Both the position numbers and the translations under genes were made by a program. This document shows positions 1,990-26,160 of a DNA stretch of 64,000 bases, one piece after another (positions within the stretch are counted from its first letter, which is position 1; each line of letters opens with the position of its first letter). The notes under the pieces were generated by a model. That model was not told where the DNA came from, ran no database searches, and saw only the letters and a list, made by a program, of their open reading frames with translations. Origin of the DNA: Squalus acanthias (Eukaryota); the NCBI GenBank assembly GCA_030390025.1, contig CM059432.1, forward strand, positions 9,920,001 through 9,984,000, written 5' to 3'.

Positions 1990-2362
1990 GGAGCAGGAAG
2001 AGGAAAGAGGGAGGAGGAAATGGGGAGAAAGAAGAGGGGAGTGGGAATGCAGGAGAGTGAAGGGGAGGGGAGGGGAGTGGGAATGCAGGAGAGTGAAGGA
2101 GAGAGGAGTGGGAGAGAGCAGGGTAGAAGGAAGAATCAGAGGCAGGAGGGGAGCGGAGAGGGAGGGTTAGGGGGACAAGTGGTAAGGGGAGAAGGAAGAA
2201 GAGAGACTAGGGAAAGAGAGGAGGGGACAGGTCAAGAGAAGAGAGGAAGGGCAAAGAGGAAAGGGGAAGAATGAGGGTGAAATGCAGATGGTGGTGGAGG
2301 AGCCCGAGGGAAGAGATGGGGTGGGGGATGAGGAAGGGGAAATGGCGGGGTTGAGAGGAAGG
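1990..2362. repeat. Purine-rich (GA) low-complexity tract
   Basis: Almost pure A/G; includes a duplicated GGGGAGTGGGAATGCAGGAGAGTGAAGG. Confidence 0.85.
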
Positions 2363-3435
2363 CTCCCCCTCCAGCCTCCTCTCCCAGTCCTGATGTCCCT
2401 CCACTGCCGGTAGTCTCGGTTAAAAAATAACAAAGTCCTCCACTATTGGCAACTTCACAAACTGACGCAAGTCTCCAGGAAGAGCTACCTCTCAGGAATA
2501 TGGCAGGGTGTGTTTGTGGGGGGGGTGCGGGGTGGTGCAGGAGGGAGACAGCATGGCAGCCAGCACTGGCCAGTTGAGGGGTTATATCAGCCATGGTGGA
2601 GGAATCCGAGCGGGGCTCACAGTTAACAACGCAAGTTATGAAATCGTTACACTGCTGGAGCCGACAAAGACAGTGCTGCACAATCATATATTCATATTAT
2701 TATTCATATTATTTTATAGAAAAATGTGCTGATAGTGTGAGATGAAGTAGGGAGGGGGGAGGCTCATGTGGAGCATAAACACCGGCATGGTGGGCCGAAT
2801 GGTCTCTTTCTGTGCTGTAAAGTTTATTCAATTCTATGTAATACCAGTCAGAGCCGGTGGGACACTGTCATCTTTTACATATTGGTTGCAATGGTAAATA
2901 CGTTGATGAGCCAGGCTAGTCCCCAGGAGTGGGCGACGGGCAGCCAGGAAACCTTTTTATTTTGAAGTTTTGGAGGGGGAGTGAGGAGGCTGAAAAGCAC
3001 CAAGAGCCACAAAAAATTAAAAGTAAATTGTTAATAAAAAAACACTGCACAAGTTGATAAAAATGTGAGAGTGAAACGCACTTAATAGCGGGCGGACTCT
3101 GATAGTGTTCAGACTGTGCACTCAGCCAAAAGAGGCTGGATTATGTACTTGGAACACGACGGCTTTACACGGCCAAACCCCTGATAAACGTGCACGGAGC
3201 AATTTATAATGGGGAAAAAATTGGCACCAAAAGTGCGACTAAAATGTGAGAACTGGACGTTATAACGGCTGTGCATTTCTGATAAGGAAGAGATCAATTA
3301 TTGCACTGTTAAAATTATTCACTTGTTCATTGTTTCATCCACTTCTTTGATATTTTAAACTTGATGATGTCATCTGTTGTGAGGCTCTGCTGATTTCGAA
3401 GACTGGGATTGGGATTTTATGCGAGTATATGATAG

Positions 3436-9875: not shown

Positions 9876-10830
9876 TCTGATGAAGGGTCATCGACCTGAA
9901 ACGGTGGGGGCGATTTTCCCAGCTCTGGGGAGGCGGGTATGGAGGCGGGACTGCCGGGAAAATGGCAGAATCTGGGAGCGGGTACCCATCCCGCCCCCAA
10001 CCCGCCTCCATGCCATCTTCCCAGGAGGCGGGTCCCCGACCCGCGCCGGGTCCCGTCTCCTTGAGGCAGGAAGGGGATTAGTGCCAATTAACTGCCTGTT
10101 AACAGCTAGTTAACAGGCAGTTTTTTTGGCTAATCCCTATTTTGCGCCCTAAAGTGTGGGCTTCCCGACGGCTCCGAACCTCGCCAGGGTCAGTGAGGCG
10201 AGCCGTGGGTCTGTGGGGGTCGGAGGGGCCGAAATGTCCGGTGTGCAGGTGAGTGATGAGTGCAAGTGTGGAGAGGTAAGTGTGTGAGGCGACTCTAAAG
10301 TGTTTTAATAAGATTACTTACCTTTGCTTCTTCCTCCAGGCTTCATCCCTTTAGGCTACGGAGCTGCCTCATCTCACCGGCAGAGAAAGCAGAATGGCCG
10401 CTGCATTCTCAGATGCAGCAGCCTGTCTGCTTTATGCTCAGGAAAGCTTTCTAAGTGAGCCTGTGTCCTAGCTTTCAACTTAGAAGACAGATTGTCAGTG
10501 TTTGACGGCTTCACAGAACTGTCAAACGATGACAATTCATCTGTCAAAAAATCTTGACAGATGAAACGTTATACGCTGACGTCATCTGTCTCCGGCTTTC
10601 CCTTAATTGGTCGGCTAAGTCCGCTGGGCGGGCTTAACAAGGTTAATCAAGGGAAAATAGCGTGGGTTGGCCAGACGTCGATGGAGGCGGGACTGAAACC
10701 CAACAACCAGCTTTCCCGCCTCCATCACGTCCCCATTGATAAAATCACCTCCGTTAACTCTGTTTCTCTCTCTACAGATGCTGCCTGACCTGCTGAGCAT
10801 TTCCAGCATTTTCTGTTTTTATTACAGATT
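9876..10830 (+). mobile_element. Penelope-like 3' fragment with hammerhead core, split by a Harbinger-like insertion
   Basis: CTGATGA-AGGGTC-ATC-GACCT-GAAAC (9877-9902) resumes as GTTAACTCTGTTTCTCTC at 10753. Confidence 0.75.
9906..10752. mobile_element. Non-autonomous PIF/Harbinger-like element (847 bp)
   Basis: TIRs GGGGGCGATTTT / AAAATCACCTCC; 3-bp TSD GGT/GTT; same family as 18672-19528. Confidence 0.8.
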
Positions 10831-11147
10831 CATTAAGGTCAGATACAACTTCAATTTAACCTCTTTCAACCTATAAGTTACACCAGTAACTATACATCCA
10901 AATCGTTTTGCATTTGCTTTCTGCCTCACCTGTGAACACTGAACTGGCAGTTTTAACAAGCTATCTGCCGAAACCCCCGGAATTTGAGCAGGAGTTGTCC
11001 CGATCTTCTGCTGTAATTTCAGTGGGAGATCAGTGGAACTCCCAGCGAAACATTTCCGTATTGAATTCCATCTGCCTCCTTTCTTCCCATTTAGCTTATT
11101 CAGGTCCATTGGCATCTTGGTAGATTGGTCAGCATTGTAACCGTACC

Positions 11148-11577
11148 CACCTCAGGTCGTCTCAAAGCGCTTTACAGTCAATTAAAAACTTTTGAAGTGC
11201 AGTCACTGTTGTAATGTAGGAAACGCGGCAGCCAATTTGCGCACAGCAAGCTCCCACAAACAGCAATTTGACAATGACCAGATAATTTGTTTCAGTGATG
11301 TTAGTTGAGGGATAAATATTGGGCCAGGACACCGGGAAGAACTCCCCTGCTTTTCTTCGAAAAGTGCCATGGGATCTTTTACATCCACCCGAGAGAGCAG
11401 ACGGGGCCTCGGTTTAACGTCACATCCAAATATGGCACCACCACCAGTGCAGCGCTCCTTCAGTACTGCACTGGGTTTGTGTCAGCCTGGTTTTTGTGCT
11501 CAAGTCTGTGGAGTGGGACTTGAATCCACAACCTTCTGACTCAGGTACGAGAGTGCTGCCCACTGAGCCACGGCTGA
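11148..11577 (-). mobile_element. SacSINE1-like SINE
   Basis: Head and central domain match the other copies. Confidence 0.85.
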
Positions 11578-11752
11578 TGCTGTTAATTGGTCTACTATGA
11601 GACCAACTCCTGCGGTTCCATCCTTTGTTCACATCCAGGGCTGAAAATCTGATGACTAACAGTAGTTCCACAGGTGCACTCGCTTTCTGTATACCCTTTT
11701 TGACATGCTCCAGTGGCCACCACCCATGTCCTGAGGACATGTCAGGCACTAT

Positions 11753-12489
11753 GGGGGAGAAATTGGCCTCCTTTGCACCTCCGGCTAGTGCCTCCGGGGG
11801 GCGATAACGGGGCGCTAAGAGCTTAGCGACCGGGCGCGGCGAAATTACCGACGCCCGCAAACTTCCATGGCGGGTTAGCGCTGGCGCTAAAACTTACCGC
11901 CTCGATCTCCTGCGCCCCGGAGATCGTGACGTCATCCGGTGCGCGGCGCCCCGTTATCGCCCCGGATATAAAATCCGCATCCGCCCCCTGCAGCTTCACC
12001 GGGCGTCAACAACGGCAGCTGCAGGAGGCGTTGTCAGCTCGGCTGGCCGCTCGGGGAGCGCTAATTAAAGGCAGTGGTGGTCAGTTAGGCCAAAATTTAA
12101 TAATGTCCAGAGTGTGCTGTAATTTGATTTTTTTTCCAGCCCACGATTGATCAGCCCTGCACTCTCTTAGAGTGCTTGGGGCTGCTGTGCGCGTATCACA
12201 GGTGCCATCGACGACCATTCCCAGCCTCAGCCTTCAATGATCACAGCATTGGCCCTTCCCTTTAAGGGAGGGAAGGAGCCTGTAAAACCGGCAGTGCTGC
12301 ACGGGACATTGTGCAGTGCTCTGCTGCTACCGCCCCCCACCCCCCCCATCTCTCGCTCTATTGATTTAGCGCTCCACTTCCCTCTAAACCGGAAGTTCCT
12401 GCTGGAATCAATTGTCTAGCGCCCAGCAATACTTTTGCGCTCCATCAAAAGTTATCACCCCAAACGGGACACTACGCAATTTCTAGCCC
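11753..12489. mobile_element. Harbinger-like MITE, GC-rich family
   Basis: TIRs GGGGGAGAAATT / AATTTCTAGCCC; TAT/TAA flanks; repeated GGCGCTAA/TTAGCGCC subterminal motifs. Confidence 0.75.
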
Positions 12490-12574
12490 TAAATAAATGC
12501 AAAAATATAAGCAGAAAATGCTGGAAACACTCAGCAGGTCAGGCAGCATCTGTGGAGAGAGAAACAGAGTTAAC

Positions 12575-14369
12575 GGGCTGGATTTTCCCTACCTCGGCGG
12601 GTCCGTGGCAGGCAATGTCGGTGGTGGGTCCCGACCCCGCTGCTGGCTCCAGCCCGCTGTCCAAAATGATATTCCCCTGATTGGGCTTGTTAAGCCCGCC
12701 CAGCGCGTTTGCCGGCCAATTGGAGGAAGCGGGTCTGATGATGTCATTTGATGACGCATCATCAGCCGATTTCCTTAAAGGGACCATGCGCAAATTTACT
12801 TTGACATTTGTGCTGTCAGTGTTCTACAGCATTGAGGAGCTGCAAACGCTGACAAGCACTGCACAAAGGTGCACAGCTGCACCCAGGCTCTCCCATGACT
12901 CCCTCCATATGCTTATGGAAGGAGTCACAGCACACGGGGAGGTTCTCTTCCCTTCCCATGGGTGGAAGAGACTTCCCCAGGAGATCAACGCAGCCTGGTT
13001 GCACATTGCACAGGAGGGCACAAGCATGGATGTCATAAGGAGGACCAGGCTGCAGTGGTGTAAACCTTTCAATGATCTCAGTAGATCAGGAACTGTTAGT
13101 ATAAAGCCACACTCAACCTCATCCTACTGTGCCACTCATCACATCCCCATCACTCTGCCTTCCCTACCCTACTCCTGCACATCCTTACTCACACCAACTT
13201 ACTTTGCACCTCCACCCATCCCTCTCTATCTACATTATTACTTCCCCATCTCACTAGCCACCCCTCACACTCACCCTCATCCTAGTCCAATCATACCAAC
13301 TAACAACACACAAGGGTAGGCACTTGTGTGTTTTAGCCAATGTTCATGTGAAGTTTCTGTTAATGTGCTGTCAAACATTGAAATCTTTATTTTTAACATC
13401 GTGTGTTCTTGTACAGATTTGTGTGAACATTTGAAAGTGGCTTAGTGAGTTGCAGTGAATGGTGAGACATAACGGTACCCCCCGCAATGGTGACAATGTG
13501 AAAGGAATAGCTTGGGCATTGTAGGGATGCTTTATGGTGCTGGTGTGGGATGGTGCCAACCTGGCACATCATGTGGCAGCCAGGGTGTACAGCGTCAACT
13601 GAAGCAAATCTGGCCTATGGTGAGGTAATCCCTGGCGTCCCGGGCTGCAATGTGGTCGGGCACTGATGCCGTGTGTCCTGTGCAGCATCAGGTGATTGCG
13701 GAGAAGGTTGGTGTTATTGTTGGTGCTGCTGGTGTGCCTGGTGCTGCTGGTGTTGGGGCTGATCATGTTCAGATTCTGAGGACCAAGGTGAGATAGTTTA
13801 ATGGGCACTGATGCTGATGTACTAGATGGCAGGTGAACTTGAGAGGACAGAAGCGATCTGTCAATGGTGAGAGAGGTTGTTCCAATGAGGCGACACTGGA
13901 TAGAGAATTTACTCCAAACACTTGCAACCTGCATAAAGCTCAATCCGTCTTCCAAATGCAGTAAGCAACAGCTTCTGAGCTTGGAAAGTGAACAGCTGTG
14001 AGATGGGAGCTTTTATAGATCATTTGTAGCTGTCAAGTAATGAGATGATTCCATGGACATCCAACTCCTGACCAGCTTACCTGACGTGATCCCCGAGCAG
14101 CGTGGACCCCGTGGGCGACCTTGTCAAATGTAAAGCTGAGCTCAAAATAGTTCATAATGGGCTGTTAACAAGGTCATAATGAGTTGAATTGCCTCCCCCA
14201 CCGCTGCGTGTCAGGTCCGCTCAGCACTGACAGACCCGACATCTGGGAAAGGCGTGTGGCGGTGCGTTGACAGCAGCGTCCCAACCCGCGGTCAAAACAT
14301 TTTTTTCCCACCTGACCCGCCACCGATTGCGCCCGCTGACCCCCCCCCCCACCCCGAAAAATTCCCCCC
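12575..14369 (+). mobile_element. Internally deleted PIF/Harbinger transposon (1.8 kb)
   Basis: TIRs GGGCTGGATTTTCC / GAAAAATTCCCCCC; exact TSD AAC (12572-12574/14370-14372); Myb/SANT-like remnant inside. Confidence 0.85.
12870..13091 (+). pseudogene. Degenerate Harbinger Myb/SANT-like DNA-binding protein exon
   Basis: APRLSHDSLHMLMEGVTAHGEVLFP...INAAWLHIAQE...RRTRLQWCKPFNDL resembles the Harbinger ORF2 Myb-like domain; second copy on the minus strand near 15690-15900. Confidence 0.7.
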
Positions 14370-16040
14370 AACGTTTCAGGTCTGTGACCTTTCATCAGAT
14401 ATAAGTTCCTGCTATATGTTTCTTTATTTTATGTGGATATATTGTTTCTTGTTTAATTGTACAGGCAAAACAAAGGTTCTGTTTTTAATTAGCATTGAAT
14501 CACTGGCCGGAATTTTCCAGGATGCCAGCAGGCGCTATCGGTGGCGGGTCAGTTGGGAACCCGCTGTCAGCCTGCCGACACGCGCCTTTCCCAATGTCGG
14601 GTCTGCCGACGCTGAGCAGACCCGACCAGCAGTGGCGGGGGACCTCATTAAAATGATTAGCATCTAGTTGCCAGACGCTCAACAGCCTTTTTTCACCTAC
14701 CTTTTCTCTTCAACTTCATGCAGACACATGCTGTCAAGCTGAGGCGTGAGTTCATTGGCCATTGCTCCAGCTGATTACTTGCTTCAAATGTACAGTAAAA
14801 GCTCCCACCAGACTGATATTCACTTTCCTCAGGCAGAAGCTGTTTCTCACTCCATTTCCAGCACACATTCTGCAGGCTTTCCACTTCCCACTCTCCAACC
14901 ACTCTCACCTCATTGGAAGAACTCTCTCACCATTGATTGAATGCTTCTGTCATCTCTACCTCACCTGCCATCTATTCCATCAACATGGGTGCCTTTTATA
15001 CTCTCTCACCTTGGTCTTCAGAATCCCACCACGATCAGCCCCAACACCAGCAGCACCAACAACAACACTAACCTTCTCCGCAATCAACTGGTGCTGCACA
15101 GGACACAGGGCATTAGCACCCGACCACATTGCTGCCCAGGAGGCCATGGATGGCCTCACCATGGCAAGATTTCTTCGCTTGATGCTGCACACCCTGGCTG
15201 CCACATAATGCGCCGGGTTGGCACCACCCACACCAGCACCATAAAGCATCTCTACAATGCCCAAGCCATTCCTTTCACACTCATCACCATTGCGGGGGGT
15301 TCCGTTATGTCTCACCATTCACTGCAACTCACTAAGCCACTTCCAAAGGTGCACACAAATCTGTCCAAGAACGCAATGTGTTGAAAATAAAGATCTCAAT
15401 GTTTGACAGCACATTCACAGAAACTTTACAGGAACATTGCATAAAACACCCACGTGCCTACCCTTGTGTGGTGTTAGTTGGTATGGTTGCACTAGGATGA
15501 GGGTGAGTGTGAGGGGTGGCTAGTGAGATGGGGAAGTGATAATGTAGATAGAGAGGGATGGGTGGAGGTGCAAGATAAGTTGGTGTGAGTAAAGATGTGC
15601 AGGAGTAGGGTAGGGAAGGCAGAGTGATGGGGATGTGATGAGTGGCACAGCAGGATGAGGTTGAGTGTGGCTTGGCAGTAACGTTTTGTGATCTACTGAG
15701 ATCATTGAAAGGTTTGTGGCACTGCACCCAGGTCCTCCTGATGACATCCCTGCTTGTGTCCTCCTCTGCAATCTTCAAATAGGCTGTGTTGATCTCCTGT
15801 GTTGATCTCCTGGGGATGTCTCTTCCGCTCATGCTGTGACTCCTTCCATAAGCATATGGAGGGAGTCATGGGAGAGCCTGGGTGCAGCCCTGCACCTCTG
15901 TGCAGTGTTTGCAGCACCTCAATGCTGTAGAACACTGACAGCACAAATGTCAAAATAAATGTGGCCATGATGCGGAGATGCCAGTGTTGGACTGGGGTGG
16001 ACAAAAATGAGAAGTCGCACAACACCAGGTTATAGTCCAA

Positions 16041-16934
16041 GGGGGAAAAATTCAGTTGGTTGCGCCTCCCGTTAGCGCCTTAAGAGGGCGCTAATGGGGC
16101 GCAAATCATCTAGCGCCCAGGCGCGGCGATGTTTGCGCCACTCGCGAAATTAACTAGACACTTTGTGGCGGCGCTAAACACTACCGCCACGATCTCCTAC
16201 ACCGACAGATCGTGACGTCAGTCGAGTGCGCAACGCCCCAGTATCGCCCCGGAGCGGATATTGAGTGGCGCCCCCTGCCTTACCGCCTGACGCTAGCAAC
16301 GACATGTTGAGGGGAGCGTTTTGCAGTCATGAAGGGACTGGGGTAGCGCTATTTAAATGCAACCGCCTCCTGCCTTTTATTGTTGGTGCCATTTTTGAAA
16401 CACGCATTCTGAGAGAGAGGGAGAGAGTCATCTGGAGAGATTCAACGCTGTGTGAAGGCGTTTTGGGTACTGAGCAGCACTTTGCAGGTTCATTTTGATT
16501 TGCCATTCCTTGTATCGATTTAGAAGAGACTGTGGGGGCTGCACTCTGAGCTCTTTCCCTGGTACTCTCCATTGTTCTTTCCAGCAGATTTGATGTGCAG
16601 GTCTCTCCAGGCCGAGATTCAAGGCTGCAATGAGCAGGATGTGGATGGAAAGCAAGATCAACCATCCCCTTTAAGAACTGGCCCGTGCCATTGTGTGTGT
16701 GTTCCGTTGCTGACTGACATCACATGAGCTTCGCCAGCGCTCTGAGGTAGCGCCTCGCTCCTCGGCCTTTGCGCCTTAAGACAGGTGTGAAGTGCCTGAT
16801 TTAGCGCTCCAATCACCTCCAGGGGCGATAAAAGTCAAGTTTGCAGTCGGTGGCGATAATTAGCGCCAGGCGCTAATCTTTGCGCCCAGGCCGATGATTG
16901 CGCCCCAAATGGGGCGATACTGAATTTCTCCCCC
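16041..16934. mobile_element. ~890-bp Harbinger-like MITE
   Basis: TIRs GGGGGAAAAATT / AATTTCTCCCCC; exact TSD CAA; copies at 45018-45910 (inverted) and 63155-63964. Confidence 0.85.
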
Positions 16935-16952
16935 CAACAGTTTTATTTGAAA

Positions 16953-16989
16953 TCACGAGCTTTCGGAGCGCTGCTCCTTCGTCAGGTAA
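16953..16989 (-). ncRNA. Minimal type I hammerhead ribozyme (Penelope-associated)
   Basis: TTAC-CTGACGA-A-GGAGC-AGC-GCTCC-GAAAG-CTC-GTGA: intact CUGANGA/GAAA core, stem I and II pairing, palindromic AGCT in place of stem III. Confidence 0.75.
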
Positions 16990-17674
16990 AGTGAAGGAAT
17001 ACAAATCAGCAAAGCATATATAGACAGAGAACAATGTGTAGCGTACAATGTCAGACGACTACAGTAAATCTTTCTGACTGCCCTCCATCACACCTCGGCA
17101 GAGAGACAATCAGGCCAGTCAGGAAGGCATTACATCAAAGACACAGCAAAATACAGCTAAGACAATGAGGTGGGGTCACAGGGGGTCCAACGTGTCAAAT
17201 GCTGCAGTCTGTATGGTTAAGCTTTTTACTTTTTTTTAAATAAATGTGGCCATGGCCCCTTTAAGGAAACTGGCTGATGACGCGTCATCAAATGACGTCA
17301 CCAGACCCGCTTCCTATTAATTGGGCCGGGTAATGCGCTGGGCATGCTTAACAAGCCCTATCAACAGCAAGTCATTTTACACAATGGGATGGAGTCGGCA
17401 GCAGGGTCGGGACCCACCACCGACATCGCCTGCCATGGATCCGCCGAGGTAAGGAAAACCGCGGCCTCTGTAACTGTATCGAATTTGCGTTCCGCAGAAG
17501 AATGATACAAACCAAGTCCTTATAAAGTTTACATTTGTTCTTAAGGTGAAGTTGAGGACTGGGTTAGCAAATGAGAAGCAATGATGGCAGAGTTAGGCAT
17601 CAGTTTCGGTAAAGGTCAAATATATCTTTCAAACATTCTCAGGATGCCACTGCTGTGTCCCATGGACAGGTACG

Positions 17675-18671: not shown

Positions 18672-19528
18672 GGGCTGGATTTTACCAGCCCTGAGGAGGT
18701 GGGTCTGGAGGCGGGACTGCTGGGAAAATCAAAAAGAATGGGAGCGGGTCCCGAACTCGCTCCCAACCCGCCTCCAACCAATCTTCCCCGGAGTCGGGTC
18801 CCCAATTTGCGCAGGGACCCGACTCCTAGCGGCGGGAAGAGGATTACAGCCACTTAACTGCCTGTTAACAGGTAGTTAACAGGCAGTTAAGAGGCTTTTT
18901 CCCATTTTGAGACTTCTGCTGCGGGCTTCCCGACGTCGGGGAACCCCACCAGGGTAAGTGAGGCGTGCTATGGGTTTGTTGCAATGTTTGTGCATCAATG
19001 ACAGCTGCAGAAGTGGTGTGAAGGATCCAATGGGACACTGGTGAGTATCAGAGGTAAGGAAATGTTGGGATAGTCATTTTTAATGTGTTTAGATTTTTCT
19101 GTCGGTGACAAGCTTTGAAGTGTTTGTGTTGGTTCACCTCATTGGGAGAAGTGACAGATGGCTTCTGTACCCTCACCTGCAGCTGCTATCTGTTTTATCC
19201 TAAGGCGAGAGTCATTGGAGTGCCTGGGTGCAAGGGCTCGTCTTTCTACAGTGATTGTCAGTGTTTGACAGCACCTCAATGCTGTCAAATCATCTGTCAA
19301 AAATAAATGGTTCATGTCCCTTTAAGAAGACCGGCAGATGAAGCGTCATCAACTGACGTCATCTGACACCCACTTGCCCTTAACTGGCCAGCAAGCCCGC
19401 AGGGCGGGCTTCACAAGGCCAATCAGGGGAAAATAGTGTCTGTGCGTCGGACATCGCTAGGGGCGGGACTAGAACCCAGAAGGCAGCAGTCCCGCCCCCA
19501 ACTCATCTTGGCAGGTAAAATCCAGCCC
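18672..19528. mobile_element. Non-autonomous Harbinger-like element (857 bp)
   Basis: Perfect TIRs GGGCTGGATTTTACC / GGTAAAATCCAGCCC; exact TSD AAA. Confidence 0.9.
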
Positions 19529-22357: not shown

Positions 22358-22700
22358 TAACAACAGAAAACGCTGGAAACACTCAGCAGGCCAGGCAGCA
22401 TCCGTGGAGAGAGAAACAGAGTTAACGTTTCAGGTCTGGGACCCTTTGTCAGAACTGGAAAAAGCTGGAGATGTAACAGATTTTAAGCAGGTGCAGAGAC
22501 CGGGGGGGGGGTGGGAGGGGAGGAAGGAATTGAAGGTATATACTGTGCTTATGTAAGAGGCAGGAATGTTGCAAATGGGGATGGCAAAATCATACAGCAT
22601 GAAAAATGGGGGCAGGGGTTATAGTTTGAAATTGTTGAACTCAATCTTGAGTCCAGAAGGCTGTAAAGTGCCGAATCGAAAGATGAGTTGGTTTATGCTT
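22358..22700 (-). mobile_element. Penelope-like fragment (family 1) with an uninterrupted but mutated hammerhead
   Basis: Minus strand AGTT-CTGACAA-AGGGTC-CCA-GACCT-GAAAC-GTT-AACT (22455-22420); core G8 replaced by A. Confidence 0.7.
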
Positions 22701-25411: not shown

Positions 25412-26160
25412 GGAATTTACAACATAGAAACAGGTGTTTACGCTCCACACGAGCCTCCTCCCGAATTCATCTCACCCTCTCAACATAACCTTCCATTCCT
25501 TTCTCCCTCATGCACTTCTCTAGCTCCCTTAAATGTGTCTGTACTGTTCACCTCAACCACTCCCTGTGGGAGCGAGTTTCACCTCAACCACTCCCTGTGG
25601 GAGCGAGTTTCACCTCAACCACTCCCTGTGGGAGCGAGTTTCACCTTCTCACCGCTCCCTGTGGGAGCGAGTTTCACCTTCTCACCACTCCCTGTGGGAG
25701 CGAGTTTCACCTTCTCACCACTCCCTGTGGGAGCGAGTTTCACCTTCTCACCACTCCCTGTGGGAGCGAGTTTCACCTTCTCACCACTCCCTGTGGGAGC
25801 GAGTTTCACCTTCTCACCACTCCCTGTGGGAGCGAGTTCCACATTCTCACCACTCCCTGTGGGAGCGAGTTCCACATTCTCACCACTCCCTGTGGGAGCG
25901 AGTTCCACATTCTCACCACTCCCTGTGGGAGCGAGTTTCACCTTCTCACCACTCCCTGTCTAAAGAAGTTTCTCCTGAATTCCCTGTTGGATTTATTAGT
26001 TAGAATCTTATATTTATGGCCCCTAGTTTTGGTCTCCCCCACAAGTAGAAACATCTTCTCTACGTCTACCCTATCGAACCCTTTCATAATTTTAAAGACC
26101 TCGATCAGGTCGCCTCTCAGTCTTCTCTCTCTTCCAGAGAAAAGAGGCCCCGGCCTGTTT
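25412..26160 (-). mobile_element. CR1 3' fragment containing an expanded minisatellite
   Basis: Collinear with the CR1 copy at 33550-34230 outside the array. Confidence 0.8.
25551..25959. repeat. Minisatellite, about 12.5 units of 31-33 bp
   Basis: Unit CCTTCTCACCACTCCCTGTGGGAGCGAGTTTCA; three 31-bp units, nine 33-bp units and a partial. Confidence 0.95.

Follow-up and report, generated by a model that had tools for sequence, protein, structure and literature searches.

The window analysed here is a stretch of 64,000 nucleotides of the Squalus acanthias genome (assembly GCA_030390025.1, contig CM059432.1, positions 9,920,001 to 9,984,000; G000:C8:9920001-9984000 in our numbering). It carries the tail of a Penelope-like retroelement, with a predicted minimal hammerhead ribozyme, in an empty copy and in two copies split by Harbinger-type DNA transposons at the same base triplet, GTT. 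The empty tail is at 22370-22460 on the minus strand. Its motif is complete, with helix I formed by AGTT/AACT; the uninterrupted sequence GAAAC-GTT-AACT is found at 22420-22431 and the triplet at 22424-22426.

At the first filled site, the 5′ part of the motif (CTGATGA, helix II and GAAAC, in the register given by 72 empty copies) occupies 9877-9902 on the plus strand. It is followed by the left target-site duplication (TSD), GGT at 9903-9905, which has a single change relative to GTT, by an 847-bp non-autonomous element at 9906-10752, and by the right TSD, GTT at 10753-10755. The latter is the predicted NUH triplet (positions 16.2, 16.1 and 17), in a numbering derived from the accessible text of PMC4209133. 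The rest of the tail, consisting of the 3′ strand of helix I and downstream sequence, is at 10756-10823. The second site is on the minus strand. The tail downstream of the triplet is found at 12505-12571 (outer end approximate), the two TSD copies, which read AAC on the plus strand and GTT on the Penelope sense strand, are at 12572-12574 and 14370-14372, and the 5′ part of the motif is at 14373-14398. Between the TSDs is a 1795-bp non-autonomous element of a long subfamily (12575-14369). The initial annotation had described the duplication of one GTT after GAAAC by both elements, and the uninterrupted motif; the positions it gave are borne out. It also held that insertion breaks the ribozyme core. 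This is so on paper, but both hosts are already without the 5′ strand of helix I, as CTGA is preceded by TCAT at site 1 and by ATAT at site 2 in place of AGTT.

Both inserts belong to what we term clan A, elements with 14-bp terminal inverted repeats (TIRs) of the GGGCTGGATTTT type, which start with a G-run, and with 3-bp TSDs; in the window copies the TIRs are decayed. Each has a closer relative elsewhere in the window, as had been noted earlier, and both relatives are at non-hammerhead sites. The 847-bp insert matches an element at 18672-19528 (TSD AAA) by 78% over 303 nt and 76% over 167 nt, and the 1795-bp insert matches an element at 14505-17466 (TSD ACT/TCT) by 79% over 1505 nt. Sequence common to the two inserts amounts to just 54 nt, at 81%. 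They had been called two different transposons, and they are indeed distinct inserts, but they are not from unrelated families: their TIRs are of one type, and they represent two subfamilies of a single clan.

Recurrent insertion on the GTT triplet

The junction GACCYGAAAC-GTT followed by the TIR occurs 555 times in exact form in the 3.71-Gb genome, over which all genome-wide counts were taken, and a reversed control pattern does not occur. The 20-mer of the empty site has 47,860 exact occurrences, and thus the tail is present in at least that many exact copies. When junctions are collected with an anchor on the tail side and a gap of 0-30 nt, 1117 are found. Hand counts of position among 100 of the matches listed place 87 on the triplet, 11 of these in a neighbouring motif copy of inverted orientation; the remaining 13 comprise five at 6 nt downstream, one elsewhere and seven that belong to a second TIR clan, clan B. 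With an anchor upstream of the triplet there are 606 junctions, and among 100 matches listed 87 are on the triplet, two are ambiguous and 11 are elsewhere. Insertions are accordingly not spread evenly along the tail. Because the anchors decay (16 of the 36 filled copies retain them in exact form), the number of filled loci is put above the exact count, at roughly 2,000-3,000 by extrapolation that allows for this decay.

The insertions are varied. Forty-six left junctions were examined and 36 have a right junction in the locus; the other ten, whose 3-kb locus lacks one, were left out. The 36 complete inserts range from 564 to 2132 bp and have many subterminal types, and both orientations are found (12 versus 22, with two unplaced). 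The duplication at the right junction is GTT in 31 and ATT in five. For half of them (18/36) the nearest relative sits at a non-hammerhead site. A tree was made of 73 of 87 elements, those of 600-900 nt that could be oriented, 30 of them hammerhead inserts. The site label changes 22 times on this tree, as against a mean of 23.6 after shuffling, and 153 of 500 shuffles had as few changes. Hammerhead inserts thus do not cluster. The two window inserts, with just 54 nt in common, likewise speak against descent from one ancestral insertion. Two loci about 70 kb apart (L011 and L012) are 98.8% identical with common upstream flanks and constitute one duplicated pair. The hotspot is therefore genuine and made up of independent events, and on this point the initial annotation, which proposed recurrent insertion on the predicted cleavage triplet from two loci, is upheld.

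Penelope tails are frequently found as close inverted pairs. In the 11 of 100 tail-anchored junctions, among the matches listed, that involve an inverted motif copy, this copy is joined directly to the tail, and many show the variant GAGAC-GTG. In filled copies, the CpG just 5′ of the insertion (ACGTT) has often decayed to ACATT or ATGTT.

The Penelope tail and its hammerhead motif

Judged by its coding sequence, the host repeat is a Penelope-like element. Among 100 tail copies examined, frames that combine reverse transcriptase (RT) motifs with a GIY-YIG-like C-terminal part are found in sense orientation upstream of the tail at L183, L204-L207, L209 and L215. The GIY-YIG part matches PF01541 with E=0.00095 and 19.9 bits, just below the cut-off of 22.6. 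The motif has the consensus AGTT-CTGAYGA-A-RGGTC-NNN-GACCT-GAAAC-GTT-AACT, which is derived from 72 in-register empty copies out of 121 candidates, selected partly on the conserved core letters. Helix I of 4 bp and helix II of 5 bp are predicted within it; an additional A follows A9, and a CG palindrome takes the place of helix III. Helix I has its 4 bp in 58-63 of the 72 copies and helix II its 5 bp in 68-72; the A15.1-U16.1 pair is A-T in 71 of 72, copies having been selected partly on those letters. Covariation is limited to one one-sided change (A-T/G-T), with almost no compensatory change. The monomer fold of the empty motif consists of helix II alone (z=0.58), which is expected without helix III and is uninformative either way. 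At E≤1, the window has no match in Rfam.

These properties fit the minimal type I hammerhead of Penelope elements, as far as this is described in the accessible text of PMC4209133 and PMC11167929, to which all comparisons here refer. The motif is accordingly a predicted ribozyme with putative self-cleavage 3′ of position 17, and the GTT would be its NUH cleavage triplet. Shared with the published minimal motifs are the CUGANGA/GAAA core, a short predicted helix I, an extra base after A9 and a palindromic 15.2-16.2 without helix III (PMC4209133). Metazoan Penelope hammerheads are also alike in being downstream of an RT and GIY-YIG frame and in occurring mostly as solitary fragments (PMC4209133, PMC11167929); the predicted 5-bp helix II differs from theirs. 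Related minimal motifs show weak cleavage in dimeric form (PMC4209133) or cleave only with protein (PMC11167929). The latter is the case in a lizard Penelope, in which the ribozyme is not required for insertion in vitro (PMC11167929). The accessible text of PMC4209133 does not mention Harbinger insertion at the triplet.

Inserted elements, target motif and other repeat sites

The inserts are of PIF/Harbinger (PHIS) type, as shown by the 3-bp TSD, the G-run TIRs, a DDE_Tnp_4 transposase in long members and an extended palindromic target. A 4230-bp element with clan-A TIRs (L082) has a broken DDE_Tnp_4 transposase (PF13359, E=1e-15), and transposase remnants are also found in L086 and in a hammerhead-site locus, L009. 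The 1795-bp insert has a decayed Myb/SANT-like frame at 12681-13319 on the plus strand (PF13873, E=0.032, below cut-off) and a 67% DNA match over 436 nt to the L082 element. The Myb open reading frame (ORF) of clan B (E=1.7e-8) matches L082, L106 and L127 by tblastn. Six of 76 TIR pairings were dropped as mis-pairings. No intact clan-A transposase was seen in the 20 top transposase loci examined; nine of these have TIR pairs and none has clan-A ends. Harbinger transposase frames that are open over 384-392 aa are plentiful (63,885 first-look candidates, 150 places scored). Among loci L183-L202, those that are TIR-paired carry clan-B-type ends, and clan B may therefore be recently active.

The commonest clan-A end pattern occurs 63,397 times in the genome. 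Fifteen of the first 100 such ends were rejected as element ends, as they are an internal look-alike in the open reading frame of another repeat. Loci L051, L053, L056, L064 and L071 carry this near-identical high-copy repeat, whose open frame has a clan-A TIR 12-mer by chance; the repeat is probably young, its copies being almost unchanged. According to the accessible text of PMC4482050, clan A resembles the NuwaI group of PHIS elements in TIRs that start with GGG, in two ORFs (DDE and, putatively here, Myb/SANT) and in long members of ∼4.2-4.5 kb. The CWG TSD that defines NuwaI does not typify clan A, where the first base is C/G in 9 of 78.

The target matrix is based on 51 non-hammerhead insertions, which reduce to 39 distinct targets and 78 half-sites. 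The target is palindromic: an A/T-rich duplication of 3 bp is flanked on either side by the half-site R-G-A-S-W-C. A at -4 is present in 68 of 78 half-sites, A/T at -2 in 66, C/G at -3 in 62, C at -1 in 57 and G at -5 in 39; the three TSD places are A/T in 69, 66 and 69. With 6.9-7.1 bits, the GTT is the highest-scoring position of the tail and is in the top 0.1% of a 200-kb background, the leave-one-out median for real targets being 7.5-8.3 bits. Its score comes from the left flank TGAAAC (3.9 bits) and the right flank (3.6 bits), with -0.6 bits from the GTT itself.

A 15-bp target preference is known for vertebrate Harbingers (PMC2836001). Zebrafish Harbinger3_DR has the consensus AAACACCWGGTCTTT (PMC3016246), and the clan-A half-site is close to it. 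In the accessible text of these papers, Harbinger3_DR and Harbinger3N_DR have the 3-bp TSD, a DDE transposase with a Myb-like protein and non-autonomous derivatives, as in clan A, where the Myb-like protein is putative; the target of Harbinger3_DR is likewise palindromic over ∼15 bp, with a half-site close to AAA(C/G)AC. One flank of the window element at 18672-19528 is AAAACAC, as in this half-site. Clan A differs in that its TSD is A/T-rich and variable and not CWG, its half-site is looser, its copies number in the tens of thousands and its hotspots are in several host repeats.

Seventeen of the 51 non-hammerhead insertions are in five other repeated targets (5, 5, 3, 2 and 2). Filled fractions, filled/(filled+empty), were determined with patterns of matched design. 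A coding site in an RT that we take, from its motifs, to be of CR1 type scores 15.3 bits and is filled in 35% of copies (653 filled, 1204 empty; 653/1857). It is the hottest site found in the analysis, and L141 and L142 (G000:C1:329863 and 452823) are clan-A-filled examples. A second repeat site, at 9.0 bits, is filled in 16% (1546 filled, 7942 empty; 1546/9488), and the hammerhead site, at 6.9 bits, in 1.1% (555/48,415). The fourth site belongs to a second repeat with a hammerhead (GAAAG-CTY), whose predicted cleavage triplet scores -1.3 bits. This repeat has 647 junctions within 30 nt genome-wide, and among the matches listed none of 100 is on the triplet. Across the four repeat sites, filled fraction follows motif score. 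All 100 listed junctions of the second hammerhead repeat involve a TTG located 22 nt downstream of the triplet and have clan-B ends. In loci L031-L126, exact copies of the second hammerhead family number 14, as against seven of the first.

The second family is also represented in the window. The element at 14505-17466 carries a nested Penelope-like tail at 15980-16990, with its core at 16985-16958 on the minus strand (GAAAG-CTC), and a clan-B Harbinger element with the TSD CAA interrupts this tail at 16041-16934. At L198, a 4.2-kb transposase-bearing element is found at the same TTG site in opposite orientation. Elsewhere in the window, 25519-26046 is a tandem array of a 33-bp unit with long open frames across the array.

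Explanations of the hotspot and their meaning

We consider it very likely (probability about 0.88) that recurrent GTT insertion reflects a palindromic ∼15-bp target preference meeting an abundant repeat, and not the ribozyme cleavage site as such. Harbinger proteins would read a DNA target that the tail's GTT resembles, the core GAAAC serving as left half-site and AACTCT as right half-site, and the duplication would thereby be placed on the predicted cleavage triplet. With helix III missing from this hammerhead, nothing separates GAAAC from the triplet, which presumably lets it act as a half-site. Transposase and Myb-like protein would jointly cut, paste and choose the target, as suggested by the literature on related elements, and with most hosts being dead fragments, insertion would be neutral. 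Several points weigh against this explanation. By the matrix, 39-47% of tail insertions would be expected at the GTT, where about 87 of 100 among the matches listed are found. It also misorders the minor sites, in that the site observed in second place (+6; five of 100 among the matches listed) does not have the second-highest score; an additive matrix of this small size may lack the necessary refinement. The training set includes one copy of each of the hotter sites, which inflates their scores somewhat. The long subfamily is under-sampled in the matrix and seems to favour the hammerhead site more, with ∼4-7 of 100 ends there among the matches listed. Filled fractions were taken from exact patterns at a single side of the junction, and repeat families may not be of equal age as hosts. 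Among Penelope tails, the filled ones do not exceed the empty ones in age (median divergence 0.044 as against 0.067), and dilution by young empty copies is thus unsupported as the source of the low filling.

The sharper-than-predicted position and the behaviour of the long subfamily would also suit a Harbinger specialised on the hammerhead cleavage site, or helped into it by RNA/DNA structure, an R-loop or nicks of the Penelope endonuclease, with the tail as safe harbour. A lizard Penelope protein does cut its own ORF-pseudo-long terminal repeat (pLTR) junction DNA in vitro, according to the accessible text of PMC11167929. Such specialisation, which the initial annotation favoured, is nevertheless improbable. 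Per copy, the site is ∼15-30 times colder than the two other repeat sites, among the matches listed the commonest TIR type has none of 100 ends there, the second hammerhead family is struck 22 nt past its triplet by another clan in all 100 junctions listed, and junctions have clean 3-bp duplications. The proposals of a special ribozyme and of a safe harbour for the family consequently find no support.

That a few ancestral insertions later multiplied as composites, by retrotransposition or segmental duplication, is more improbable still. The L011/L012 pair is one instance of it, but the many subfamilies, lengths and orientations, the relatives at non-hammerhead sites, the unclustered label on the tree and the little sequence common to the window inserts led to rejection of composite amplification. 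Least probable of all is the absence of any landing preference, with insertions in dead Penelope copies simply tolerated. Hosts are mostly fragments and insertions probably neutral, as tolerance would have it; it cannot, however, single out one triplet among ∼60 positions of a neutral fragment, and the strong flanking motif is present at unrelated sites.

The hotspot is best explained by a trait already known from vertebrate Harbingers, their extended target preference, here displayed at genome scale, and does not reveal a ribozyme-seeking transposon. Literature searches, which covered titles and abstract openings outside Repbase reports, subscription papers and supplements, yielded no paper describing insertion of a Harbinger at a hammerhead. 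Apparent targeting of a functional element can come from motif match multiplied by copy number, which calls for caution. The tens of thousands of natural insertions, with repeat sites filled at 1%, 16% and 35%, provide a data set for modelling of target choice, and nested insertions are usable for ordering repeat families in time. Perhaps, although we regard this as rather unlikely, the GAAAC core of Penelope hammerheads without helix III is an inherent Harbinger half-site that an active retroelement could not mutate away. If so, GAAAC-type Penelope ribozymes would be a built-in landing pad by which one transposon class knocks out another, and this would apply wherever Harbinger3_DR-like elements and GAAAC-type Penelopes coexist in a vertebrate genome.

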